Shown here: positions 11,341-51,051 of the stretch, one piece after another
Numbering within the stretch: the first letter of the stretch is position 1
Layout of the letters: each line of letters starts with the position of its first letter
Source of the DNA: Raja brachyura
Taxonomy: Eukaryota
DNA: 64,000 bases
Direction of reading: 5' to 3'
Assembly (NCBI GenBank): GCA_963514005.1
Contig: OY740783.1
Location: 5,642,001 to 5,706,000 of the forward strand
Notes under the pieces: model-generated
What the model was told of the DNA's origin: nothing
The model's database searches: none
What the model saw: only the letters and a program-made list of their open reading frames with translations
Made by a program: the position numbers and the translations under genes

Positions 11341-11362
11341 TTCAATGGGAGCCGTGTCTCAG

Positions 11363-11431
11363 CTCCGCCCGTTGCACCACTCGGTTTACAGGCCCCGCCC
11401 ACAGCCACGCCCTCTGTTGCCGGGTATTTAA
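11363..11431 (+). promoter_or_regulatory. Candidate VH promoter: three GC/CACCC-type boxes and a TATA-like element, no octamer
   Basis: ctccgccc 11363, ccccgccc 11393, ccacgccc 11405, TATTTAA 11425-11431, about 95 bp upstream of the leader ATG. Confidence 0.55.
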
Positions 11432-11524
11432 TTCTCTCTAAGAGGGTCCGAAATCCATCTTCCTTGCAGTGGGTTTGTTGCGAGGTTCTGTACAGAAACA
11501 AACCGGGTCACACTTCCCAGCGGG

Positions 11525-11570
11525 ATGAGGTCGGCGGTTTCACTGAGTCTATTCCTGGCGTTAATAGTCC
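11525..11570 (+). CDS. IGHV: IgH leader exon (MRSAVSLSLFLALIV)
   Basis: ATG, hydrophobic signal peptide and phase-1 donor gtgagt at 11571; in frame with the V exon. Confidence 0.92.
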
Positions 11571-11744
11571 GTGAGTAACGAGTTGGACAAAATCCTCACG
11601 CATGTTTCTCAGTGGTAGATCCCCAATGCCATTCCCCTTCTACCCACTCTTCAACCCTCCCAATGTCTTTCCTCTTGATAATTAGTGTCGGGGATTAATT
11701 GTCAGTATTTTATCCTCACCATTCATGCCTTTTATAACTTGCAG

Positions 11745-12048
11745 ATGTCCATTCCGATGTCGTTCTAACTCAGCCCAAGACAGCGACGGCCCGTCCTGGA
11801 GGCTCCATTACACTGGAATGTAAAACCAGCGGGTTCACTCTTAGCAGCTACGCAATGTATTTGGTCCGTCAGGTCCCTGGGCAGGGGCTGGAGTGGCTGA
11901 TTTCCTACAACAGTTATTATAGCAAGAACATCGCTCCGGGGATAGAGAGCCGATTTACTCCGTCCAAAGACAATTCGAATAATATGTTCACCGTGACCGC
12001 CAGGGACCTGAGGATCGAAGACACCGCTGTCTATTACTGTGCGAGAGA
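11745..12048 (+). CDS. IGHV: Immunoglobulin heavy-chain V segment (unrearranged, open frame)
   Basis: Acceptor ttgcag at 11744. Translation [52 protein letters not shown]...DTAVYYCAR, with both canonical Cys. Confidence 0.97.
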
Positions 12049-12087
12049 CACAGTGTGAGGATTCAGTGACAAGAGCGGCACGTTGGG
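12049..12087 (+). other. V recombination signal: consensus heptamer, no recognisable nonamer at 23-bp spacing
   Basis: CACAGTG at 12049-12055. The nonamer position (12079-12087) reads CACGTTGGG. Confidence 0.8.
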
Positions 12088-12628
12088 AAGTCCAGCTTTC
12101 ACCATCAAAGACCAGAGGTGAGAATTTTTTTTCAACAGCTATAATAACAGTCGGAAAATGGAGCGCAAACTACCGTTGGCAAATCCAACACGATATGTTG
12201 TTCCATTGTTTAAAAAGGGTTCAAAGAATAAACCTAGCAATTATTCAAAATGTAACCAGCGCATTGAAGTGAGATTGGTTTGTTCTTTCCTTCACTCATA
12301 CCGACAGCGTTGTGTACAATCATAGACCACGAATATATGCTGATTCCATTACGCAGTTGAGATGCAGGGAGATTGTTGGTGTTATGTCTACTATGTTCCA
12401 GTTCATTGGCTATATTTAAGCGGGAGTTAGATGTGGCCCTTGTGGCTAAGGGGATCAGAGGGTATGGAGAGAAGGCAGGTACGGGATACTGCGTTGGATG
12501 ATCGAAGGGCCGAATGGCCTACTCCTACACCTATTTTCTATGTTTCTATGTTCTCTGTGAACTGCTGGGCCATTTAAAATCGTGTCGAAGGCCATTTCAA
12601 ATGAAACCCAAGTGTGAACTGTATGGGA

Positions 12629-12656
12629 GGTTTTTGTGTGGGTCTGTCTCACTGTG
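12629..12656 (-). other. Consensus 12-RSS on the 5' side of the D(D)J unit
   Basis: GGTTTTTGT (12629-12637), 12-nt spacer gtgggtctgtct, CACTGTG (12650-12656). Confidence 0.96.
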
Positions 12657-12726
12657 TATGCGGTGGGTAGAATACTTACGGGTTTTGACTACTGGGGAGG
12701 AGGCACCATGTTGACCATAACCAACG
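12657..12726 (+). CDS. IGHJ: Pre-joined D(D)J segment (YAVGRILTGFDYWGGGTMLTITN)
   Basis: About 27 nt of D-like sequence runs directly into the FDYWGxGT J motif with no internal RSS; phase-1 donor gtaag at 12727. Confidence 0.92.
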
Positions 12727-14803
12727 GTAAGAAACTTCATCCTATTCAGTCTCTAGATGTATCCAGTTGTAATTTTAATATATATTTCCAATAATTGTCT
12801 TCTGCATTAATTACCAATTCATTGCAATGTTGGATCGATGTTGCTTTAGAATGTTATGTGATTTCGCTGCAGTAAGATTACCAAATTAAACGTGCCTTGT
12901 ATGCTATGACTTCGATCCTTTGATGATGGAACGGGTGTGATTTAGTTCCTAATTAGTCGAAAAATGTGCTTGAATTTGCCTTCACCATGCTTTCAAATTG
13001 TTTGAGACTGTTGTTGTCCAAGATCAGCGATGCATCTAACTGTGTTTTCTGATCAACAGCGGGTACTTTGTCTCAGTTTGTTTGTTCTCAACGCATATTT
13101 CTCAACACATGGATTTAAGAGAGAGTTAGATAGAGCTCTAGGGACTAGTGGAATCAAGGGATATGGGGAGAAGGCAGGCACGGGTTATTGATTGGGGATG
13201 ATCAGCCATGATCACAATGAATGGCGGTGCTGGCTCGAAGGGCCGAATGGCCTCTTCCTGCACCTATTTTCTATGTTTTTATGTTTCTATATGAAACAAA
13301 CGATAGAAAGGGATAAATCCTGGGTGTAAAATGTCCAAGTTTTGTATTTAAGAAGTGTATGTATTAATTGGTGGAATCGCATTGCTACCTTTGATCCAAT
13401 GGCTAACAAAACTTGCATTGAAGATGTATCATTTTCTTGCAGCAAAGCACAGAAGTGCAAAGTTCTTTAGTAACTTGTCAGTTTCTTTGTTGAACTCAAT
13501 TAAGGAGCATGTTGCAATCAAGATCGCTTGAACAATGGGTTGGGAAGGCGGTGTGTCTCCATATCGTGGAAGCATTGGTAATCACTCTCCAATGTCCTAT
13601 ACATTCTGCATCAGTTCCTGTGGATTAAGGGTAGATAATGCTATCCCACTTTTCAAGATAGGAGGGAGAGAGAAAGCAGGGAATGACAGAGCAGTTGGCC
13701 TGACATCGGTAGTGGGAGAGATGCTGGAGTCAATTAGCAAATAAGTAACATCGGCGCGTTTGGTTAGCAGTAACAGGATCTATCTATTGTCTATGTATCT
13801 ATGTATTGGTGGAGTCCATTTGTTATTATGTTATTTCAACAATGATTGGCTCGGCCGTCTTTGGGCCAATGAATTTCGGTGGTCTATGGACAGAGATATT
13901 TGGATTTTTGTGAAGAGTTTCAGTCAATGTGTGTTGTGTGATTCAGCCCATCAGCGGTATCATTCAGCCGGTCATTGCGGGAGACGATGGTGTTGCACAA
14001 TTGGATGTTTTTGTATGTTCAATTCGAATGGCAACGACCGGGTATTGCTGTCGGATTGGGTTATTTCAATAAACGCAAAGAAGACATATGTTTAAAAATA
14101 AGCAGGAATTGATGTAAATTAATAAGACCAATACATTCTGCAAACACTTAAAGGGTCAGGCAACCTGCGGCGAAAGTCAAATCTCAGGCAGGGGACCAGA
14201 AAGACAGCTGGTAGCGCCAGAGCGCCGACTACGTTTCCGAAATCAGTGGCAGACTGTGTAGGAATTTGTGCATTTTCCCTGTGGTTTAAATGCTATTTAC
14301 TGGTGCTCTGCTTTCCTCCCACGTCCCGAAGACGTGCAGGTTTGAAGTTTAATTGACCTGTGTGATTGTCCCTGGTGTGTCAGGGGTGGATGCGATAACG
14401 TAGAACGTGTGTGTCGCCGTGGATTCGGTTGGCAGAAAGATCTATTTCTTTGTTCCATCTCTAATCTTAATTGAATTTGCCATGAACTGGTCATCCAAGT
14501 ATCGTTGACCTGGAAATGTATTGGTTTTCCCCTTCCACAAGTGTTGCCCGACCCGATGACCCATGTCTCAATTTCCTGTTCAATACCACGACATTACCTA
14601 TTTGGAAAATACCTTGACTGTCAAATGGGGACATTTCGGAATAGCTGTAGTATTTAAATAATTTTTAATCCACGCATTTATTAGAAAGACAATTTGAAAT
14701 CAAATTTTGTCTACGGCGCCCAATGTCATTTAAACATAACGTTCCTCTATTTACTAAATTGCTAATGAAAAATGTAATTTACGGTTAAAAAAAAGAAAAT
14801 TGG

Positions 14804-18395: not shown

Positions 18396-18692
18396 CGGCT
18401 GATTCCCCCCCCAGCCCCTTCATTCTCTTCACGTGCGAGGATCGCGGCTCCAGTGGTTCGTTCACCTACGGTTGTTTGGCGTTGGGCTATTCCCCTGCGG
18501 GCGCCAGTGTCTCTTGGAAGAAAGATGATACAGACCTGGTCGATGGAGTGAAGGAATACCCGGCAGTGTTCAATAAGTTGGGAACTTACACCCGGAGCAG
18601 CGAGTTAACCATCACAGAGGCAGTGGCTGGGGGAAGCGACATCTTCTGTGTGGTTTGGCACAACCAAAAAGAGTATAAAGTGAAAGTACCAG
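18396..18692 (+). CDS. IGHM: IgM constant exon Cmu1
   Basis: ttgcag acceptor, phase 1. AADSPPSPFILFTCEDRGSSGSFTYGCLALGYSP...SWKK...IFCVVWH; donor gt at 18693; N-terminal Cys for light-chain linkage present. Confidence 0.95.
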
Positions 18693-20879: not shown

Positions 20880-21194
20880 AACATGTGGTATATCATCCAA
20901 CCGTCACCATTACCGTAACTTCCCTTGATGAAATCAAGCGCAGCAAAAAAGCGATCGCCGTGTGTTTGGTCAACGATTTCACCCCAGCAAAATTTGCTGT
21001 GAACTGGCTGAAGAATGGAAAGCAAGTGGATTCTGGCATCGTCACCTCTCCCGCCTTCCAGGTGAACGTTAACGGTAACTTCTCAGCGACCAGCCAGTTG
21101 ACAATCCCAGCTCTAGAGTGGAACGGACGTGCCGTCTATACCTGCCAAGTCAACCATGAAAAACATATAAAAAGCCAAAATATCAGTAGGCAAG
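20880..21194 (+). CDS. IGHM: IgM constant exon Cmu2
   Basis: tttcag acceptor; C1-set motifs VCLVNDFTP, WLKNG and YTCQVNH; gtaag donor at 21195. Confidence 0.95.
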
Positions 21195-21655: not shown

Positions 21656-21958
21656 ATGATGGTCCCTGCGACGAACTGAAGATTACAATCCTTCCACCAC
21701 CTGTTGAACAAGAGTTAATGGAGATGACCGTGACGTTAACCTGTCTGGTATCCGATGCACCTTACGGTATCACAGTATCTTGGAAGCGCATAAAGGTGCC
21801 TTTGGCATTAGATATCCAGTCCACAGAACATGGGGAAATCGTAGAGAGCAAAGTAAACATTTCGACTCGTGACTGGCTGAGTGGGGATTATTTCGAATGT
21901 GTGGTGAGCTATGAAGATCTGCCGTATCCAAAATCTAAACAAATCAACTGGAAGAAAG
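21656..21958 (+). CDS. IGHM: IgM constant exon Cmu3
   Basis: tatag acceptor; DDGPC...LTCLVSD...SWK...DWLSGDYFECVVS; gtgag donor at 21959. Confidence 0.95.
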
Positions 21959-24130: not shown

Positions 24131-24522
24131 GTCAACATCTGCTGACACCGTCCGTCTCAGTCCTTCTGCCGCCGACAGAAGAGATCTCCGCGCACAAGAC
24201 TATCACCCTCACCTGCTTTGTGAGAGGATTCTCCCCTCGCAGGGTCTTCGTAACGTGGACGCATGATGACAAGCGGGTGCATTGGAGCAAGTACAAGAAC
24301 ACCGAGGTGGTGGCGGAGAACGGCAATGAAACATTCTTCACCTACAGCCTGTTATCCGTTGGGGCAGCGGAGTGGGCTAGCGGAGCCTCCTTCTCCTGTC
24401 TGGTGGGGCACGAAGCACTCCCCATGAAGACCATTGTCAGAACGGTCAATAAGTCTAGCGGTAAACCCAGTTTTGTCAACGTTTCCCTTGTATTGATGGA
24501 CACTGTCAATTCCTGTCAATAA
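24131..24522 (+). CDS. IGHM: IgM Cmu4 plus secretory tailpiece
   Basis: [21 protein letters not shown], and tail [20 protein letters not shown] with NVS sequon and penultimate Cys. Internal membrane-form donor G|GTAAA at 24461. Confidence 0.97.
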
Positions 24523-28126: not shown

Positions 28127-31100
28127 CTTCCGGTGGCGCTATGCTGGAGTGAGGAGGCACGCCAGCCAGCTCCGTGAAAAAAACGGGGAAAAAAACGGGA
28201 GATAAAGCCCTGCCTGCTGCCTGCCGTTTCTGCACGAACTGTTGTGAGTGACGTTATCAGGCACACGACCGTAATGGCAACACAGCGCAGACCACCCGCG
28301 GATAAACCCAAACTCAGATATGGAAGACCGAAAACGGCAGAAGAACAAGGCCTGACTGAAGCACCGGGCTCAGGTAGGACATCCTCCCAGGAATATGTGT
28401 CTAAAAAGTTAAATAAAAAATCGGAGATGGAAGAACTTAAAACTTTTTTTACACAAGAAATAATAGAGTTAAAATCGGAATTGGCAAAAAAAGAAGATAT
28501 AGAAAAAATGAAGGAGGAGATGAAAAAGTTAAAGTTTGAAATTAATGCCTCTACTCGGGAACTATCTGATAATTTGCGAAAGGAAATTGCAGAAATATTA
28601 GCGGAACAAGCTGCAATTGCTGCTGAAGAGATGAACGCTAAAATAAAAAGCAAGCTGGAAAAGGAGCTGGAACCTATCGAAACTGTACTTAATGAGCAGT
28701 CGTCGACCATAAAGGACCTTGAGGAGATAGCCGAAACAAATACTCAGTCTATGAAAGCACTCCTGAAAGAAAATCAACGCTTATCTGATCAACTGGGCAA
28801 AATAACTGAAAAATGTATCGAGTTGGAAGGGCACCAGCGAAGGCAGAACTTGAGAATCGCAGGTATTCGAGAAGGGAGAGAATCGAATCAAGATACCCGA
28901 GAGTTTACTGCAAATTTACTGCAAAAGGTTTTATCTCTGGATCAGAAACCTTTATTAGCCTGAGCACACAGAGTAATGAGGCGTTATACAAGACCAGACG
29001 CCCCCCCAAGACAAATGATAGTGAAACTCCAGTATGATCATGTTTTGGAGGAGATGATGAACAAAATAGTAAGAAGCAGAAACCTCACATTCGAAGGAGA
29101 CTCTATCAGCATTTATCGAGACTACCCAGCAGAGGTTTCTAAGAAGCGGAATGCGTTCAAGGAGACCAAAAGAATTCTGAGAGAAGTGAACAACGTGAAG
29201 TACACTCTGAGATATCCACCACTCTCAGAGTCACCCACAACCAGGAAGAACACTACTTCAAAAACCCAGCAGAAGCACTGGACTTTGCCAAGAGGATCAA
29301 GAGTCAAGAGGAAGACTGAATGAAAGTTTCTAAGACGAACCTCATTGATAAATAAATCGTACCCTCACGACTGGAATGGGCTATGGACTTGTGGTACTTA
29401 AAGAAGATGGAGAAGGAGGCGGCTTGGAGACTCGGATGGGAGATATGGATTGGACATTCGTTTATGGATATTAATAATTAGAGTAATAACATTACTAATA
29501 TTAACTAATAAATTCTAAAAAATTCGGCGTAGTATTATTACTAATTTACAGCGCGGTACTAATACTAATTAAAGTTGATAATCTTCAATCAGGGATTCAT
29601 ATTTACTCATGGCTGATTTAAATAGAATTAGATAATTATTAAGTATAATCATATAGAATATAAAGCTTGATTTTATTTACATCCCATGGTAATTTTTTAT
29701 TTTTCTCCCCCTTTTTTTATTTTTTAAATTTTTTTTAACTTTTTTATTTTTCCTCCCTTCTTTTCATTACATTTTATGATATATCTTTAATTTGTTTCAA
29801 GTACAGATATTATTATATACTTGAATGATAGACACCGTATACATCAGATTTTATTACTCCCAGTTAAATATTTTTATGAATTAATAATATTAAGGAGCTG
29901 GAAAGATACAAACAACGTCTACGGATGTCCTTAGATTATTAGCCATGTTAGAATGGCTAACACTCACTGCACCAATCTTAGATGTAGTTTTTTCTTTCTT
30001 TGAGCACTCTTTTAACCTCTTAATCTATCCTTTTTTTAATATCACTTTCTATTATTATTATTTTACATTTGAATGGAGTTGTAAATCAAAGCAAAGGAGA
30101 TATATGCGTGAGCATTACTTAAGGGTCTTGAAATTCATCTATTTGAAGTTCGGGTGTAAGGCCGGGTATGTCGAGCTGAACCATTTGCTCTATTACAGAC
30201 CCCCTTAGACAAATGATGCAAGACTTAAAAACGAATATGGGGAATGGAGGAATAACGTTTTGCAGCTGGAACGTAAAAGGTATTAATGAACCAATTAAGA
30301 GAGGTAAAGTATTATCACACCTAAAAGCACTCAAAACAGATGTGGCATTCATCCAAGAAACACATTTAAAAAAAGACACAGAGCATAGATTAAAAGCCAA
30401 ATGGATTGACAAAGTGTATCATTCTTCTTTTACAAACAAATCAAGAAGCGTAGCAATATTAATCCGTAAAGGTACCTTATTTAAACATACTTCAACTATA
30501 ACAGATAAGGAGGGCAGATATGTTATCATAACAGGAGAATTATATACACAAAAAATGATTTTTGTTAACATTTACGGCCCAAATTTTGACAGTCCGTCGT
30601 TTTTTAGGAAAATACTAAATACTATCCCAGAACTAGTACAATACAATTTAATAATTGGAGGAGATCTAAATTGTACATTAGATCCTTACTTAGACAGATC
30701 ATCAAGACAACGGAAAACTAAATCGCTTTCTAGCGATCTAATAAATGCATATATAGATTCGAGCAACATTATGGATGTTTGGAGAATGGAAAACCCAACG
30801 GGACGAGAATACTCGTTTTACTCATCAGTACATAAAACATACTCAAGAATAGACTACTTTCTAGTAGACTCAAAACTTATTCCACTCACTTATAATTCAA
30901 AATACCACAATATTATAATTTCAGATCATGCACCATTATCTTTTATGATTAAAATAACTGGAAAAATGGGGAAGCAGGGACAATGGAGACTCAACCCACA
31001 AATTTTAAAGGACAAAACAACTCAAGAATACATTTCAAAACAAATTGAGATCTTCTTTGAAACAAATGACAAACCAGAAATATCCCCGTTACTACTATGG

Positions 31101-34100
31101 GAAACTTTTAAAGCATATACACGTGGAATTATGATATCTTCTCAAGCATTCTTTAACAAAGAGAATCGGAGGATACAGCAGGCATTGGAAAAAGAGATTA
31201 AGCAAATAGATATAGAAAACGCTGCTAATCCAACCATGATTAAACATAATAAAATCTCTGCATTGAAATATAAATTAAATAAATTACAATCAGACCAAGT
31301 TGTAAAACTTTATCAATATACAAAACAAATACAATTTGAATTTGGAGATAAACCACAAAAATTATTTTCTGGTCAATTAAGAAAATTGGAGGGAGAAAAA
31401 ATAATCCATAGGGTTAAATCAGATACAGGAGAATTATTAACACAAACCAAAGACATTAACGAGAGATTTCTGCAATATTATAAAAAATTATATTCAGTCA
31501 AAACGATAGAAAATCATATAGGAATAGAAACATTTCTAAAAAATTGTAATTTAAAGGAATTAGATATGGAAGACAGAGAATCATTAAACGCTGAAATAAC
31601 AATTAAAGAAATCGAAGAATCTATTAGGTCATTAAAAAATGGTAAAGCACCAGGACCGGATGGAATTGGTTCGGAATTTTATAAAATATTTGATGATTTA
31701 ATGATACCACGGTTAAAGACACTTTATGAACACATTTATACACAACAGAAATTGCCTGGAACATTAAATGAATCTATTATTACATTAATACCTAAAGTAG
31801 ATAAAGATTTGGAGGACCCTGATCATATAAAGCCATAGCTCTTTTAAACACTGATCAAAAAATATTAACTAAAATATTAGCACGAAGATTAAATATGGTG
31901 ATCAACAAAATAATACACCCAGGCCAGACTGGATTTATACCAAAATGATACTCTTCATATAACCTGAGACGATTATTTAACATTATATACTCGAAAAGAA
32001 ATACTAGTAAAGACCTAGCAATTATCTCATTAGATGCAGAGAAAGCTTTTGATCAGGTTGAATGGTCTTATTTATTCTCGGTTTTGGAATCCTTCCAGCT
32101 AGGAGAAAAGTTTATAACGTGGGTCAAGTTATTATACACCAATCAGACAGCTAGAATACAAACAAATCAAATGTTATCAAGTAAATGTAACTTATTCAGA
32201 GGCTGTAGACAAGGTTGTCCGCTATCACCACTACTCTTTGCGTTAGCAATAGAACCATTAGCACAGCGTGTGAGACTATACCCTGAAATATATGGGTATG
32301 AAACCAAAGAAACGGAAAATAAAATTTCTTTATACGCAGATGATGTATTACTCTATATTACAAAGCCTGAAATTAGTATACCTACCCTGCTAGATTTAAT
32401 AACTCAATTTGATCTACTCTCAGGATATAGAATTAATTGGAATAAAAGTGAACTTATGTCAATAATGGAAATAACTCACACATATTACAACGATTCCTTT
32501 TACGATAGCAAATGAAAAAATTAAATATCTTGGAATTTATGTAACAAAAAGACATGACTCTTTATTTAAATCTAATTTCCCACCTTTATTGAATAAATTA
32601 CTTAAGAATATTCTATATTGGAAAACATTACCTATCTCAATGTTAGGTAAAATAAATGCGATAAAAATGATCTTTCTCACGCAAGTATTATATTTATTTC
32701 AAATGATCCCGATATATCTTCCCAAAAATTTTTTCAAAAAGGTGGATTCTATAATTACAAATTTTATTTGGGATTATAAGAGCCATAGAATAAATAAGAA
32801 ACATCTATGTAAAGCAAAAATAAGTGGAGGTTTAGCGTTGCCTAATTTTATGTTTTACTATGGGGCAGTTTATATTAAAAATATGAATTTTTGGTTGGAA
32901 GAATTAGATATACAGCCGAATTGGTTAAAATTGGAAAAGGAAGACTGCTTACCTTTTGAAATTAGCTCGATTATATTTGCTAATACCAAATTACATAAAA
33001 AAACTTATAGAGGAAACCCAATAATAGAAAATGGGATACGTATTTGGAAACAATTTAAAAAATCTTTAAAATTGGAATGTATACCACTGGATCTTCATAT
33101 TGCAAACAATATCACTTTTAAACCCTCTAGGATGGATAAAGGTTTTTCACAATGGAAAAATTATGGAATTAATAAGATACGGGATCTCTCTAGGGACAAC
33201 CTTTTTCTTACATTTCAAGAATTACAACAAAAATATGGACTACACTCAAAAGAATATTTTAGATATTTACAAATTAGAGATTATGTTAAATCAAATACAC
33301 AAGCATTTAGAAATAGAAAGACAGAAATTCTAGATGAATGTTTAAATAAACATCCAAACACAGAAAAATTAATATCATATATTTATAATATTTTATTGGA
33401 AAATGATGCACCACCGTCGGAAATATATAGGCAAGCATGGGAAAGCGAATTAGGACAATCAATTAGTTTAGAAGTATGGGAGGAAAGTTTACAACATATA
33501 CACTACTGTTCATTAAATGCCAGACACTCTCTGATACAATTTAAAATTTTACATAGATTACATCTCTCAAAGTCCAAACTAAATAGAATTTTCCCAAATG
33601 TTTCTGCTATATGTGACAAATGTCAACACCTAGAAGCCAACCTAACGCATTCATTTACCAAATGTATTAAAATTACTAATTTTTGGTCGGACATTTTTAA
33701 GATAATTTCGAAGGTAGTTAATACAAATCTGTATCCAGATTCTAAATTAATTATATTAGGTATATTAGAAACTGATCAATCACTAACAACAAAACAACTA
33801 ATTTTTATCGATTATAGTTTAATAATTGGTAAAAAATTAATACTAAAATTTTGGAAAGGTCCTACCAACCCCACTATTAAAATGTGGATTAAAGAAATGT
33901 CGGAGACACTTCATTTGGAAAGATTAAGACTTGTCCTCTCGGACAGGCTAGATCAGTTTAGAGGAACATGGTCTCCATTTATTGATTATCTAAGGGGACA
34001 AATGGGCTCGGTTCGAGGGCCTGACTGAAACCTGGACGGGGAATGGATGAAGAATTATATATAATAGATCACTGATATATCTCCAATGTAGAATAGAATG

Positions 34101-34368
34101 TTTAAAACTCCACTCATATTATTGATTTTCTATTTTTATTATTATTTTAATTTCTTTTATTATTTCTTTCTATTAATTTCCTTCTTTATTAAAAATAAAT
34201 AAAAAATATGTAGAAGTATAAACAAGAATGACTGTAAATTTTATAAATATTAAGAATGTATGTGATGAATAGCAAATTCTTTGGTTTCTCTTTTTTTTCT
34301 TACATTTTAAATTGTCTTAATATGTATCAATATGCATTAACTTCTAATAAAAAATATTAACAAAAAAA
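28127..34368 (+). mobile_element. Full-length L1-clade LINE with disrupted ORFs and a 15-bp TSD
   Basis: ORF1 pieces at 28244-29323 (RRQNLRIAGI). ORF2 pieces at 30213-34028 (SWNVKG, QETH, SDH endonuclease; RQGCPLSP, YADD; C..C...H...C). A-tail. TSD AAATAGTTTAAAGCT at 28114-28128 and 34369-34383. Confidence 0.95.
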
Positions 34369-34878
34369 AAATAGTTTAAAGCTATTTTTGTACACAAGCC
34401 TTCCTCCATTACCTATCCGAAAACAAGATACATCAGACAACAGGGTTCTAATGTGGGAATTATGGCAATGTTTGCGTTCAGTGAGTTCCTTCGCCGAGGT
34501 CCGGTCGCCAACTCCAAATAAAGGTTTATCTGATAACATTGTTAGCAATAACGAGTTTCCATTTTTATATCATCTCGGTTAGTAAATTATATTAATGGGA
34601 AGCGGACGTTTATAAAATGAACAATTAATCCCAGAAATATACATACACATGGCTTTCTCTAAAACTATTCATAAATGGTTCTTTATTAGCTGCTGTGGCT
34701 ACAAATGGTCATGATTTTGTATATATTTATTGAGGGTGATTATCTCAACGTAAAAACAGTTCATAGTAAATTAATATCCCCAATATTAATATTCGTATTA
34801 TTTTGGTAAGTAATAAATAAAATACAATGTCCTATATTAGAAAACACTGTGAATGTCTTCGCGTTCTGCTTTGCGTAG

Positions 34879-35006
34879 ATTACGCCGATGACGTTTGTCT
34901 TGAGGACTATGAGGAAGACAGAGACAACATCTGGAGAACCGCTTCCACATTCATTATCCTGTTCTTCCTGAGCATTTCCTACGGCACTGCCGTAACTCTG
35001 GTGAAG
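34879..35006 (+). CDS. IGHM: IgM transmembrane exon TM1
   Basis: cgtag acceptor, phase 1. DYADDVCLEDYEEDRDNIWRTASTFIILFFLSISYGTAVTLVK (acidic spacer plus conserved mIg TM motif). Donor AAG|GCGAGT. Confidence 0.93.
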
Positions 35007-35122
35007 GCGAGTTCATTCCACTTACTTTTCCACCTGATTGAAGAGTCGGGCAAAATATCGATTATCGTACTCTTTGAAGGCCCAGGCATCTTTGTCACAG
35101 ACTGCTAATGCACTTTCATATT

Positions 35123-35587: not shown

Positions 35588-35596
35588 GTCAAGTGA
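35588..35596 (+). CDS. IGHM: IgM TM2 exon (VK*)
   Basis: Strong pyrimidine tract and tacag acceptor, then GTC AAG TGA, completing the KVK cytoplasmic tail. Confidence 0.88.
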   Translation, partial: VK

Positions 35597-43140: not shown

Positions 43141-45121
43141 CTGATTCTGTTTGAACACAGTTTTGAACAGTTATGGCACCAGATTCAGACTGCCATGCTT
43201 GAGAGAAGATATTGGAATGTAGCGTTTTTAGACGTGGAAAATGCATTCGGATTTGTACCACATATTAGTAAGATTAAATGAGAACTTACCAGTTTGAAGT
43301 TTGATCTTTATGTTATGAGGAGTTACGATGAGCGATTATGTGAAGAAGGTCGTCAACCCGCATGCGCGTCAATCTTCAAAGCAGCGATGTGAAATCACAG
43401 AAGAACAGTTGTTGACCTAAAATAGTAATATTTGAGCTGACTAGAACTTCCAGAAAGATCTTTATGTTACGAGGGTCGGGAGCGGAGGGCACGTAATCGC
43501 TCATCGTAACGTCTCATAAAATAAAGATCAAACTTCAAACTGGTAAGTTCTCGCTTAATCTTACTATTTTACTTCGGAGTCACGTGAGTGACTACGTGAA
43601 GATTTTGAAGCTCTGTGATTTCATGCCGTGGAAACGAGTCTATGCGTTACACACTGCATCAATTGACCAGGATGAGTGAGAAAGAATTAATGCATTCAAA
43701 CATGACATGGATAAAAATGCTAATGCTTTAATAGCGAAAAGAAAATTAACAGTGACCCCTCTGACCCAGGGGGAAACTGTGAAACAGAACTTAAAACAGA
43801 ATTAGCAAAAGTCCCCGGTCTGGCGATAGGTTTGTTATAAAACCTTTGGTACGTCCGCTCATTAGACCATCCCGCAGCCGCTAGAATGTGGTCGAGAGGG
43901 ACATCCATATCCCTTGCTGCTGACGTCGATGCCACCCTGGTGGAATGAGGTTTAAAAGTGTCAGTGTTCACTCCTGCACATGCCAGAACCTGTTTAATCC
44001 ATTTTGAGATGGTCTGCACTGTAACCTTCCTATGAGGTTTGGTGTAGCTGACGAATAAGGATAGTTCCGAGCCTCAGAGGCTCTTAGTGACCTTAATGTA
44101 TTGTAATATGTGAGATACCACACACAACCGTAGGTCTAAGGGGTAATCCATAAAACTCAATTCTAGCCCCAATATCCCCGGCCTGCTCTGCTTAATGAGA
44201 TCATGAACAAAAAAGGTGATGTGGTCACAAGATGCAACCATGCTGTCCAGTCTAAGTTTATGTAACGTCTGGACCCGTTGAGCTGAGGCCAGCGCCATGA
44301 GCATGACTAAATTGAGTGTAAGATGGTGCAGAGACAGGGATGAAGCTGGTGCCCACTCACGGAGCAGCGTAAGAACCACGCTCACATCCCATATCTGTGA
44401 ATACGTAGGCCTAGGGGGAGCAGAGTTAAAAATGCCCTTCATAAATTTAGTTATTCAGGGATGAGATCCTACAGTGTGATTACCTGACCCCAGCCATAAA
44501 TAAGATGACAAAGCACCCCTAGCACTATTTATGGCACTGTAACTGAGCTTCTGATCATAGAAAAGTGATGAAAGAAACTCCAAAACATTTGTGATGGAAG
44601 CCGTGTCATATGAAATTTTTGAGAGAGAACAGTACATCTCCCATTTCCTTATGTGAGTGAGGTACTGTTTTTGGGTGCTCTTCCTCCAGGCCGCAGTGAT
44701 CACATCTATCGTACGCTCTGAAAGCCCGAGCCCCAGGAACGGTCTCCTCAGAATCGGCAAACCAATACATTTATACGGTCATGAAGAGGATGGCTTTCCC
44801 CTGTCACAGGGTGTACCAGCAGATTTCTGCTCTTGGGGAGAGCCACAAAAGGCTGTGTAATTATAGCTCGGACGAGTGGGAACCAATGCTGAGTAGGCCA
44901 GTCTGGTACAACTAATATGCCAGAAGTGGAGTCTTGCTTGATCTTGGCCAAGCATCAACTGATGAGGCAGAATGGGGGAAATACATACAAATATTTTCCA
45001 CCCAAGTGTAGTGAGAATGCATCAACTGCTACTGCCCCTACGTCTGGCTCCCATGACATGTAATTTGGTAACTGATGATTAAACCTGGATGCAAACAGAT
45101 CAATGTCCGGTACACCATAAC

Positions 45122-48100
45122 ATAGAAACATAGAAAATAGGTGTAGGATTAGGCCAATCGAGCCTGCACCGCCATTCAATATGATCATGGCTGATCATCC
45201 AACTCAGTATCCCGTACCTGCCTTCTCTCCATACCCCCTGATCCCTTTAGCCACAAGGGCCACATCTAACACCCTCTTAAATATATCCAATGAACTGCCC
45301 TCAACTACCTTCTGTGGCAGAGTATTCCAGACACTCACCACTCTCTGTGTGAAAAATGGTTTCCTCATCTCGGTCCTAAAGGAATTCCCCCTTATCCTTA
45401 AACTGTGACCCCCTTGTTCTGGACTTCCCCAACAATCGGAACAATTTTCCTGCATCTGGCCTGTCCAACCCCTTAAGAATTTTGTAAGTCTCTATAAGAT
45501 CCCCCCTCAATCTTCTAAATTCCAGCGAGTACAAGCCGAGTCTATCCAATCTTTCTTCATATGGAAGTCCTGCCATCCCAGGAATCAGTCTGGTGAACCT
45601 TCTCTGCACTCAATACTCCAGGTGTGGCCTCACCAAGATCCTGTACAACTGCACTAGAACCTCCCTGCTCTTGTACTCAAATCCTTTTGCTATGAATGCC
45701 AACATACCATTCGCTTTCTTCAGTGCCTGCTGCACCTGCATGCCTACTTTAAATAACTGGTGTACCATGACACCCAGGTCTCGTTGCATCTCCCCTTTTC
45801 CTAATCGGCCACCATTCAAATAATAGTATACTTTCCTGTTTTTGCCACCAAAGTGGATAACCTCACATTTATCCACATTATACTGCATCTGCCATGCATT
45901 TTCCCAATCACCCAACCTATCCAAGTCACCTTGAAGCCTCCTAGCATCCTTCTCACAGCTAACACTTCCCGCCAGCTTCATGTCATCTGCAAACTTGGAG
46001 ATGTTGCATTCAATTCCCTCATCCAGATCATTAATATATATTGTAAATAGCTGGGGTCCCAGTACTGAGCCTTGCGGTACCCCACTAGTCACTGCCTACT
46101 GCCTACTAGTTACTGAATTTGAAAATGACCTGTTTACTCCTACTCTTTGCTTCCTGTCTGCCAGCCAGTTCTCTATCCACATCAATACTGAACCCCCAAT
46201 ACCATGTGCTTTACGTTTGTATACTAATCTCTTATGTGGGACCTTGTTGAAAGCCTTCTGAAAGACCAGATATAACACATCCACAGGTTCTCCCTTATCC
46301 ACTCTACTAGTTACGTCCTCGAAAAATTCTATAAGATTCGTCAGACATGATTTACCTTTCATAAATCCATGCTGACTTTGTCCAATGATTTCACCACTTT
46401 CCAAATGTACTGCTATCCCATCTTTAATAACTGACTCGAGCATTTTCCCCACTACCGATGTTAGACTAACTGGTCTGTAATTGCCCGTTTTCTCTCTCAC
46501 TCCCTTTTTAAAAAGTGGGGTTACATTAGCTACCCTCCAATCCTCAGGAACTACTCCAGAATCTAAAGTGTTTTGAAAAATTATCACTAATGCATCCACT
46601 ATTTCTGGGGCTACTTCCTTGAGTACTCTGGGATGCAGCCTATCTTTGCCCTGGGGATTTATCGGCCTTTAATCCATTGAATTTACCTAACACCACTTCC
46701 CGGCTAACCTGGATTTCACTCAGCTTCTCCATCTCATTTGACCCCCGGTCCCCTGCTATTTCCGGCAGATTATTTATGTCTTCCTTAGTGAAGACAGAAC
46801 CAAAGTAGTTATTCAATTGGTCTGTCATGTCCTTGTTCCCCATGATCAATTCACCAGTTTCTGACTGCAAGGGACCTACATTTGTTTTAACTAACCTTTT
46901 TCTCTTCACATATCTATAAAAACGTTTACAGTCAGTTTTTATGTTCCTTGCCAGTTTTCTTTCATAATCTATTTTCCCTTTCTCACTGAGTTCCTCACTG
47001 TGATTAACAGGCACTCAGTCTTGACATAATGGATGTCCGAAGGACCCTAAAAGGAGAGAACGCACGAAAAGCGGCAGGCCCTGATAACATACCAGGGCGG
47101 GTGCTCAGGGAATGTGCTGATCAGCTGGCACATGTCCTTATGGACATCTTTAACACCTCGCTGAACCAGGCTGTCGTCCCATCGTGTTTCAAGGCTGCCA
47201 CCATCATACCAGTGCCAAAAAAATCCAATATCCAATGTCTCAACGACTACCGTCCTCTGTAGCACTCACTCCCATAATGATGAAGTGTTTCGAGAGGCTG
47301 GTCAGGGATCATATTACCTCCAGACTCCCCTCCACACTTGACCCATACCAGTTTGCTTACAGGCCAAACCGCTCCACAGAGGACGCTATATCCTCCGTAC
47401 TCCATCTGAGCCTGGAACATCTAAAGGAGAAGAACACTTATGTGCGAATGCTGTTCGTGGATTTTAGTTCAGAATTCAACACAATTATCCCTCAGCACCT
47501 GATAAGCAAACTGGTACCATTGGGCCTCAGCACCCCCATGTGTAACTGGCTACTGGACTTCCTCACTGACAGACGCCAGTCAGTGAGGGTTGGAAATAAC
47601 ACCTCTAACATCATCTCTCTGAGCACCGGCTGAGCATCAGGGCTGTGTCCTGAGTCCACTGCTGTTTACCCTGATGACCCACGACTGTTGTGCCAGGTTT
47701 AGTACAAAGCACATCATGAAGTACGCAGATGACACAACATTGGTGGGCCTCATCCGGGATGACAATGAGCTGGCTTACAGGGAGGAGGTGAAACAACTGG
47801 TGGACTGGTGCAATACGAACAACCTGATCCTGAATGTCAAAAAAACAAAGGAGGTCATCATCGACTTCAGGAAAAACCGGCATAGTCCCACACCACTTCA
47901 CATCAATGACAGAGATGTGGAGGTGGTCAGCAGCACTAAGTTCCTAAGTCAAATAACATCTCATCAACAGTTAAGAGAGCGCAGCAGCGGTTGCACTTTC
48001 TGCGCCGGATGAGAAGAGCTCACCTCCCCCATCCCATCCTCACTACTTTCTACAGGGGCACCATAGAGAGTATTTTGACCAGCTGTATCTCTGTCTAGTT

Positions 48101-48613
48101 TGGGGACTGTAAAGCCTCCGACTGGAAGTCCGTGCAGAGAGTGGTGAGGACAGCGGAAAAAATAATTGGGACTTCTCTCCCCTCAATCGGGGATATTGCG
48201 ACCAAACGTTGCGTGTCTAAGGCCAGCAGTATTATAAAAGACCCCACACATCTCCATCACGGACTGTTCACTCTGCTGCCCTTGGGCAAAAGATATTGTA
48301 GCATAAGGAGCAGAACATCAAGGTTCTGCAACAGCTTCTTTCCACGAGGCATCAGACTCCTGAATGCCATGTAATGGGCTGCTACCATTGTCTATTTTAT
48401 CCTTTTATCCTTTTATCCATTTTTTTTCCATTTTACCCTTTTGTTAATTAACGTGTTGCACAGGGAGCCAAATGCAACGGAATTTCATTTGGAATTGCAT
48501 ATATCAATGTATTTCTAAATGACAATAAAGTTTGTTTGACTTTGACTTTGACTTTCCTAATTAAGCCCTTTGTCCTCATCTGCTGGACTCTGTTTTTTCT
48601 GGCTAATTTGTAA
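45122..48613 (-). mobile_element. CR1 LINE nested in the DIRS element
   Basis: ORFs 45204-47014. The CR1 sequence resumes at ~48556, and the DIRS frame rejoins across ataac repeats. Confidence 0.9.
46983..48555 (+). mobile_element. Rex1/Babar-type LINE nested in the CR1
   Basis: [35 protein letters not shown]; aataaa followed by a (tgactt)n tail. Confidence 0.88.
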
Positions 48614-51051
48614 ATAACGAATGACAATGTCATTAAACACTTCGTGATTCAACATTCATTCCTTGTTGTAATTGAATTGTCGTGACCTGGTGTCTGCCAT
48701 CATGTTATATCTACCTGGTAAGTAGATTGCTGAAACCCAGATATTTCTCGTAATACACCAGTGCCAAATGAGATTAGACAATTTATCACAGGATACAGAC
48801 TTACTTCCACTCATGTGATTAATGTACGCTACTGCTGTAGTGTTGTCAATCAGAAATTGAACATGCACATGATGCATAAAGGTACAATAAGTCTTTAACC
48901 CATAGAGTGCTCCCAACAATTCAAAGTAGTTAATACCATGTGACTGAAGCATCGATGATTCCTGCAGATTCCATCTGCTCCCGCAGCTAGAGGTGGTGTT
49001 GTTAGCACCCCAACCTAGCGCACTGGCATCAGTTTTTAGGATAACTTATGGTGTATCAACTAAAATAGTAATAGAACACTAATAAATATTGGTAACACAC
49101 CATTGTATCTCAGCAATGGCTTCAGCTGGCAACTGCATAGGCCTATCAAAGCAACCTCTATGAAGCTTGAGTGCCTGCTCCTTTGCACGCCGTAAATGTT
49201 GGTAGTGCAAAGGCTCGAACTGAGCAGCTGGGAAAGCAGCCACGAATTTGTCAATTATACTAGCCACATGTCTAATTGAAGGTTGGTTCTTAACAACGAG
49301 ATTTCTGCAGGCTTCGATTAACTCTAATTGCTTGCCCCAATTTGCATTGAGTTAATGGTGAATCCCAAATAATCAATTATCCTAGATGGTACCAATTTAG
49401 ACTTAACTGAATGGATTAGAAAACCCAGTCTCTCAAACATGAGTTTGGTAGCTGACACAGATAATTCAGCTAATTCCAAAGTCTTCCCAATGATTAAGAT
49501 GTCATCCAAATATGCCATGACTATATGATTCTGTGCCCTGAGTACCTCCAGGACTGGTTTTAGCAATTTTGTGAATAGTCTGGGCACTGAGATTAACCCA
49601 TTAGGCAATGCTTTAAACTGCCACAATTGCTCCATCCAGCTAAACTTCAGATATCTCCTGTGGCATTAATGAATGGCCACTGAATAGCAAGCATCTTTGA
49701 GGTCAATGCATGCCATGTAACATCCTTTGGAAACCAGTTGTTTGGCAGTGACAAAGTTTTCCATTTTGAAGTGTTTATACTGCACAAAGTTGTTAAGCTC
49801 AGTTAAATCAAGAATGATTCGACATCCTCCATCCTTCTTTTGCCTAGTAAATATATTGGACACAAACTGGTGAGGCTCATGACTCGACCTCTCAATTACC
49901 CCTTTCTTGAGTAAAGACTCAATTTCCCCTTGTGCACTCACACACTCCTGTTGTGAAAGAAGAAAAGTGCGGCTCGGTGTATGCTGGCTGGGTGGAGACG
50001 AGTCGAAATGGAACTCAATTTGAAAACCTTGTATACTGCGCAGTATAAACGGGTCAGATGTTATCTAATGCCATTCATGTAAGAAAAACTGTAGTCTACC
50101 CCCAACTTGTAACTGATCCATCAAAGATATGTTATGCAAACAACCAGACTCACTTAGTGCTTATCGGCGGTATGGCTTCTGCCCCCGAGATCTGGGGGGT
50201 AGGGCTGTTGGAGAGCGCCATGCGCGCATCTTGCACATGGCCCAGCTTGGGCCCTGCCCTAAAAAAGGCCTCTGTGCCTGCTGCTCGTGACGTCCACCAT
50301 ATCTGGCGGACCGTTTGAAGTGGAGAGGAGGGTAGGGGTACTGTCGCCAGAAAGATGAAATCCTAGGAGGTGCCTTGATAAGGCCGACGGTTTTAGCCTC
50401 CTCATCCATTTCCTTTACCTGCTTAGGCAGGTCTTCCCCGAATAGTAGGTTTAGGGGTTGCACATTCCCCGGCTTGCACAGCCCTGCAAATTTCGGGTTC
50501 AGAGCAGGATGGATGGCATTCTTCCGGAGGCAATTGATTTCAAAATGTGCATTGCACATTAATGCCATCGCATCCTGCTGGGTATCAGAGAGGGGCGCCC
50601 CATCCACTGACCTGGCAAAGGCCGTGATACTTGAAGCAAGTAATTGTAAAACTTTTTGAAGTTTTACTTCCTGGGCTCTGATGCCCCCTCCAATGTGTCC
50701 CCAGATGGAATTGTTCATTGCCGGGACATTGAGTGAGGCACAGTTCAGTGGGGTAATGTATTTGGCAGTAGTTTCTTCCATGGCCTGGTCTTGGAGTTGG
50801 TGAGAGGCCAGGTAATTGATGCTCATGGCCAGTTCTTCTCCCAATGGCTCCCCTGTTAGGGCAGGGATAGCAAATTTGGATGCCATCGGGGTTACTCCCA
50901 GGGTATGGCCCGCATGCCTTGAAGCATGCAGCCCAGCTGTGCCTCCGTACACTGAGTCAGTATAGTACTGGCCTCATACGCTTCCCTCATCAGAGAGGGG
51001 AATATGCTGCCCTGACACAGGTGCTGCTGCCTCGGGTTCCCCGTAATACCC

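Follow-up and report, generated by a model that had tools for sequence, protein, structure and literature searches.

A germline V-DDJ immunoglobulin heavy-chain cluster of Raja brachyura with a 10-bp deletion in the spacer of its V signal

The window analysed here, a stretch of 64,000 nucleotides (C3:5642001-5706000) of a 2.7-Gb genome, carries one immunoglobulin heavy-chain cluster amid LINE-like and DIRS-like repeats. D1, D2 and J of this cluster are fused in the germline, V stands apart from them, and the spacer of the V RSS has been shortened from 23 to 13 nt. From the comparison with related clusters of the same genome we consider it somewhat probable (roughly 0.55) that the cluster is a pseudogene of recent origin, whose V segment was stranded by a deletion that preceded the joining.

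The cluster and its V signal

The window cluster is an elasmobranch IgM heavy-chain cluster. It runs in the order leader, V, RSS, 12-RSS, fused D1-D2-J, Cmu1-4 and TM1-2 (Table 1; coordinates are window positions), with leader-VH, D/J segments and C exons all in one orientation, as in elasmobranch clusters, and it has the four Cmu exons with a secretory tailpiece and the TM1/TM2 exons of an IgM gene. The IgM label is based on this exon layout and on features of the Cmu4 tailpiece that we take to be of IgM type, rather than on naming the C region from a database. In a protein search with most of V as the query, all 13 candidates were hits but none was close; identity of the VH translation to shark VH proteins was 58-63%.

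As the sequence-only reading had claimed, every exon is intact: leader, V, J, Cmu1-4 with the secretory tail, TM1 and TM2 are all open, no stop or frameshift is found, and splice sites, promoter and polyadenylation signal match those of the sister clusters. The intron that follows TM1 (from window position 35007) begins with GC in the window cluster, in its twin copy and in 13/13 unjoined sisters, and with GT in the joined locus L019. Read-through from V ends at a TGA immediately 3' of the heptamer. Inspection by eye found no usable splice acceptor before the DDJ and showed that GT sites at the end of V, common to the sisters, are out of phase with Cmu1. Among the repeats, the L1-like element is full-length, with long ORF pieces and a target-site duplication of ~13 bp, and, by visual inspection of the translations, ORF fragments on the minus strand of 43700-51000 resemble gag, RT/RNase H and tyrosine recombinase of a DIRS-type retroelement.

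Table 1. Features of the heavy-chain cluster, in window positions
Feature	Position	Strand	Remarks
Proximal promoter region	11345..11524	+	by alignment, almost the same sequence as in unjoined sisters
Leader exon	11525..11570	+	open, GT donor
VH exon	11745..12048	+	open; identical in twin copy
V RSS	12049..12077	+	consensus heptamer, 13-nt spacer, family nonamer ACAAGAGCG at 12069-12077
Spacer deletion site	12068..12071	.	10 bp, ACA microhomology; only in window cluster and twin
D1 5' 12-RSS	12629..12656	-	intact; heptamer and nonamer both consensus
D1	12657..12668	+	3' end untrimmed; 2 substitutions vs commonest sister D1
Germline junction	12669..12684	+	3 nt (first possibly a P base), 5-nt D2 remnant (12672-12676), 8 untemplated nt
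JH	12685..12726	+	6 nt trimmed; entire DDJ open in J frame (YAVGRILTGFDYWGGG...)
Cmu1 exon	18396..18692	+	open
Cmu2 exon	20880..21194	+	open
Cmu3 exon	21656..21958	+	open; His-to-Tyr change private to window copy
Cmu4 exon	24131..24522	+	with secretory tailpiece; AATAAA downstream
L1-like insertion	28129..34369	+	6.2 kb, sense, poly-A end, target-site duplication; in Cmu4-TM1 intron
TM1 exon	34879..35006	+	open; GC donor as in unjoined sisters
TM2 exon	35588..35596	+	VK-stop

The heptamer directly 3' of the V exon, at 12049, is consensus, which agrees with its description as perfect in the sequence-only reading, and the reported lack of a nonamer at the expected distance was confirmed. In a scan of spacers 10-26 against the consensus nonamer, spacers of 22, 23 and 24 nt score 2, 0 and 2 of 9, and the previously noted match at a 13-nt spacer (12069-12077), ACAAGAGCG, is the only one to reach 6/9. 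The identical nonamer is present in 6/6 unjoined sisters on C3, there at a 23-nt spacer, and 7/7 unjoined sisters on C2 carry a variant that matches the consensus at 7/9 positions, ACAAGAACG, also at 23 nt. Since the unjoined sisters carry the same or nearly the same nonamer at 23 nt (the V spacer in 13/13 of them), the lesion is in the spacer and not in the nonamer. A deletion in the V 3' flank had been predicted near 12080; there is one, of 10 bp relative to the sisters, and it is located at 12068-12071 instead. It is a clean loss between two ACA repeats, with 3 bp of microhomology and four equivalent placements, and apart from poly-T length it is the sole cluster-private indel in the ~600-bp interval between V and D1. 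An identical 3' flank was sought in the sisters and found in 0 of the 13 unjoined ones.

As a result, the V signal is now of the 12 type and faces a consensus 12-RSS downstream (12629-12656), so that the supposed incompatibility under the 12/23 rule is real, and the cluster lacks what a functional one has, a V with a 23-spacer RSS that can be paired with a 12-RSS. A cryptic right-facing signal of the 23 type was sought in 11500-12628, where the best candidate carries 6 mismatches. According to mammalian assays, a 13-bp spacer retains ~11% of 12-RSS activity (PMC11520388); the weak new V signal would therefore lose to the D signals. In all unjoined sisters (L003-L015) the V nonamer departs from consensus, having G at position 5, and would rate as weak by mammalian data. 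An RSS-like motif that faces V, with a 13-nt spacer and a near-consensus nonamer, occurs in the J-Cmu1 intron (13903-13931); it was rejected as a cluster-specific signal, being present in most sisters.

Sister clusters, twin copy and the DDJ joint

A search of the same genome scored 30 candidates and yielded 27 loci of the window VH family and three of a distant one. The latter (L028-L030, on C10 and C283) form a second VH family at ~70% identity, with unjoined clusters and near-consensus RSSs. Thirteen loci of the window family are fully unjoined, six on C3 and seven on C2, and all 13 have the RSS pattern V23, D1 12/22, D2 3' 12 and J23; the D2 5' 12 signal was seen in the six C3 sisters, which were scanned for it. 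Exact-pattern searches of the genome returned 15 D1 5' signals, namely those of the 13 unjoined sisters and of two V-DDJ copies, and two copies of the deleted spacer. Both copies with the 13-nt spacer are the V-DDJ ones.

Counted by junction, the window family contains nine germline-joined lineages. There is one VD-D-J lineage (L017, L018), one VD-DJ lineage (L020), six fully joined lineages (L016, L019, L021-L024 counted once, L025, L026 and L027) and the V-DDJ lineage made up of the window cluster and its twin. V is joined in 8/9; the V-DDJ lineage is the sole one with V unjoined, and it is also the one with a broken V signal. The twelve joined loci L016-L027 are spread over nine contigs. 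In L021-L024 the second V cysteine is lost at the joint, and L016 has a V-J junction of 3 nt and frameshifted C exons. L023 was classed as joined and left out of junction parsing. In four of the eight parsed fully joined loci (L019, L025, L026, L027), 14-35 nt separate V from J and the D matches among them are only short, so that N addition looks like a general feature of germline heavy-chain joints in this genome.

The twin cluster is found at C3:6126777, offset by ~473 kb, in a block of >100 kb that is mostly 98-99.6% identical. Over 6449 aligned non-coding columns the window cluster differs from the twin by 0.29% and from the six C3 sisters by 2.4-2.7%, and trees of the C exons and of the introns set the pair apart from these six (support 98 and 100). 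The L1-like insertion is common to the twin and absent in 4/4 sisters compared. The deletion and the DDJ junction are germline, because the twin carries both; judged from the two copies, they are inherited in either case, with the twin as a paralogue or as the other haplotype. The surrounding region (C3 5.26-6.33 Mb, L001-L008) has eight IgM clusters in a repeated block, with only the V-DDJ pair on the + strand. Near-identical pairs there (L003/L004 at 0.16%, L007/L008 and window/twin at 0.29% each; overall range 0.16-0.5%) suggest a tandem duplication of ~470-600 kb or two haplotypes placed in tandem.

In the DDJ joint, the 3' end of D1 is complete, J lacks 6 nt, and 16 nt lie in between. Five of the 16 match D2, a match that is weak taken alone (shuffle p=0.10), and the other 11, one of which may be a P base, match no germline segment. 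D2 was presumably used, since direct joining of D1(22) to J(23) would be illegal. The D1 3', D2 and J signals are absent, the RSSs and the intersegment DNA having been fully excised at the joints, and in the J frame no stop interrupts the DDJ from the first base of D1 onwards.

Order of events and alternative explanations

We propose that replication slippage or end-joining between the ACA repeats deleted one helical turn and would thus have left a weak 12-type V signal. When RAG later acted in germ cells, only D1(22)-D2(12) and D2(12)-J(23) would have been efficient legal pairs. RAG would have fused D1-D2-J with trimming and TdT-like N addition (~11 untemplated bases), and V would have been left facing a 12-RSS with which it could not pair. 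Somatic completion to VDDJ would be blocked as well, because the cluster retains no 23-type signal. The exons may still be intact because too little time has elapsed.

That the deletion preceded the joining is the order we lean towards, since V-DDJ is the expected end state with V blocked and is otherwise unseen (0/8 other lineages). V-to-D1 joining is also favoured by the Group 2 genes of nurse shark (PMC2435157). The idea of the sequence-only reading, that the V RSS defect explains why joining stopped at DDJ, thus gains from the census, in which 8/9 lineages have V joined, but it concerns a single event whose order cannot be read from the sequence. The twin is a copy and does not count as a second event, and the case was picked after the fact. 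Moreover, nurse shark Group 5 forms V-DDJ as a prominent somatic intermediate, often in thymocytes (PMC2435157), so that this layout can arise with a working V signal, especially with a non-consensus nonamer as in the window family. The multi-base indels that part the pair from the six C3 sisters number two if well aligned and four if poorly aligned ones are included (6449 non-coding columns), which puts the chance that such an indel hits the 39-bp RSS at 0.7-2.9%, a figure that does not choose between the orders because both need the deletion.

As to whether the gene is dead, C-exon changes on the window lineage (11 nonsynonymous, 5 synonymous) fit neutrality (p=0.39) in a test without power, and the sister branches, at 21:6, do not differ (Fisher p=0.72) and have no purifying signal either; the dN/dS result therefore does not show pseudogene status. 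Under neutrality, the probability of survival without stops, frameshifts or splice lesions is 0.18-0.44. The L1-like insertion between Cmu4 and TM1 may hamper the membrane mRNA. On the other side, promoter, DDJ frame and 12-RSS are all intact. With CDR limits set by us, 5/8 lineage-private V changes fall in CDR1/2 in comparison with the six C3 sisters (p=0.008), and 3/5 in comparison with all 13 (p=0.05). This clustering suggests that the gene was working for at least part of the branch.

A search of sequencing runs matched 21 runs, none with half of the query words and none of RNA, and gives no evidence either way on expression. Assembled contigs of four runs from other organisms were compared over 12062-12800 only, a range that leaves V-side joints outside. 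Pieces from three runs end at the end of D1 (12668), and one piece begins at the nonamer (12069) with ~30 further letters unmatched, as expected for unjoined, undeleted clusters. None of the listed pieces in this range from the four runs bridges the DDJ junction, and such contigs show presence, not absence.

The same pseudogene could have been reached in the reverse order, which appears rather unlikely to us. Germ-cell RAG would have made V-DDJ while the V signal was still working, the resulting gene with a half-fixed CDR3 would have served for a time, and the deletion would then have killed it. The reading frame of the DDJ, open throughout, and the CDR bias of the private V changes speak for this order, as does the frequency of somatic V-DDJ in one shark subfamily (PMC2435157). 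Because position 5 of the family nonamer is not the A/T that has been tied to function (PMC12711392), V joining may be the slow step anyway. However, V is left unjoined in 0/8 of the other joined lineages, and a rare layout and an indel of 0.7-3% probability would have to coincide in one cluster.

Low-level use of the cluster, which we think unlikely, could take several routes: the V heptamer might act as a cryptic signal for the 12-RSS of the DDJ, a 23-RSS V from an oppositely oriented cluster 164-209 kb away might join the DDJ by inversion, or Cmu might be a switch acceptor for VDJ from other clusters, through switching of the shark type. Both copies are intact apart from the spacer, a clear nonamer is missing in many cryptic RSSs (PMC12711392), and nurse shark expresses V regions together with C regions from clusters >120 kb away (PMC4279169). 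Yet V(D)J joining between loci is a great rarity in nurse shark, with one possible case in 97 (PMC2435157). A neighbouring V would need an inversion, because 6/6 unjoined C3 neighbours lie on the opposite strand; the absent purifying signal and the possible effect of the L1 insertion also weigh against use. An artefact of assembly, or the capture in the assembly of a somatic rearrangement from lymphocytes, is a very improbable source of the layout. V-DDJ is admittedly a known somatic intermediate, and the twin could be a second haplotype placed in tandem, given how little the C3 pairs differ. However, two copies with flanks 0.3-1% apart over >100 kb match letter for letter in junction and deletion, which requires inheritance for paralogues and alleles alike, and the lineage is ~2.5% from every unjoined sister, so that it is not the somatic product of any of them.

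Meaning and comparison with known germline-joined clusters

For the germline-joined heavy-chain genes of sharks and skates, the roles of RAG, TdT and RSSs have been called unclear, and an origin through them was left open since joined and split genes were too divergent, whereas germline light-chain joints pointed to little TdT activity (PMC2193156). The window joint can be parsed because its unjoined sisters are ~97.5% identical. The sole cluster with a V signal that breaks the 12/23 rule is the cluster with V left out, and it thus provides a natural control. The sequence evidence suggests that germ-cell heavy-chain joining is rule-bound RAG recombination with N addition. If the deletion came first, as we favour, the V-DDJ cluster frozen by a 12/23 violation can, on balance, be taken as a fossil, which indicates that germ-cell joining reads RSS spacer length and uses TdT. 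In its boldest form, which is quite doubtful, the proposal would make the in-frame DDJ-Cmu unit a V-less acceptor cassette that takes a V from a neighbouring cluster by inversion, a first step from cluster to translocon logic. The fixed DDJ junction is a barcode: if B cells were found to have a V in front of it, that V would be a direct measure of recombination between clusters or against the rules. The importance of the gene itself is limited, because the family has many copies and this one is probably dead; what it offers is a well-defined lesion, useful as a control in the study of V(D)J joining in germ cells.

The original horn shark survey reportedly lists unjoined, VD-J and VDJ types. 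Described germline IgH joins of sharks and skates are partial (VD-J, VD-DJ) or full VDJ (PMC5192425), and the genome analysed here likewise holds VD-D-J, VD-DJ and fully joined clusters. The window cluster shares with the partially joined ones the V-D1-D2-J-Cmu minilocus, the fusion in the germline and the excised RSSs (PMC5192425, PMC2193156), and differs from those described in that V is unjoined and a spacer deletion breaks the 12/23 rule. A germline V-DDJ was not found in the literature searched on shark IgH, where V-DDJ is somatic only (PMC2435157), and primary surveys or supplements may list one, or a cluster with a defective RSS; PMC12227049 contributed nothing further here. The somatic V-DDJ of nurse shark lymphocytes is alike in layout and trimming and carries N/P additions (PMC2435157), which the window joint may share, whereas that of the window is inherited and duplicated, and the 13-nt spacer would keep it from being completed to VDDJ.

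The germline-joined NS4 light chains of nurse shark are similar to the window cluster in recent germ-cell joining, in having close unjoined relatives against which the junction can be parsed, and in a possible P base (PMC2193156). In contrast to the NS4 joints, for which that source gives little evidence of TdT, the window joint has ~11 untemplated bases in 16. Nurse shark IgM1gj is also a germline-joined IgM gene (PMC4279169, PMC5192425). According to these sources it is fully VDJ-joined, neonatally expressed and without Cmu2, whereas the window cluster retains Cmu1-4 and lacks a finished V region.
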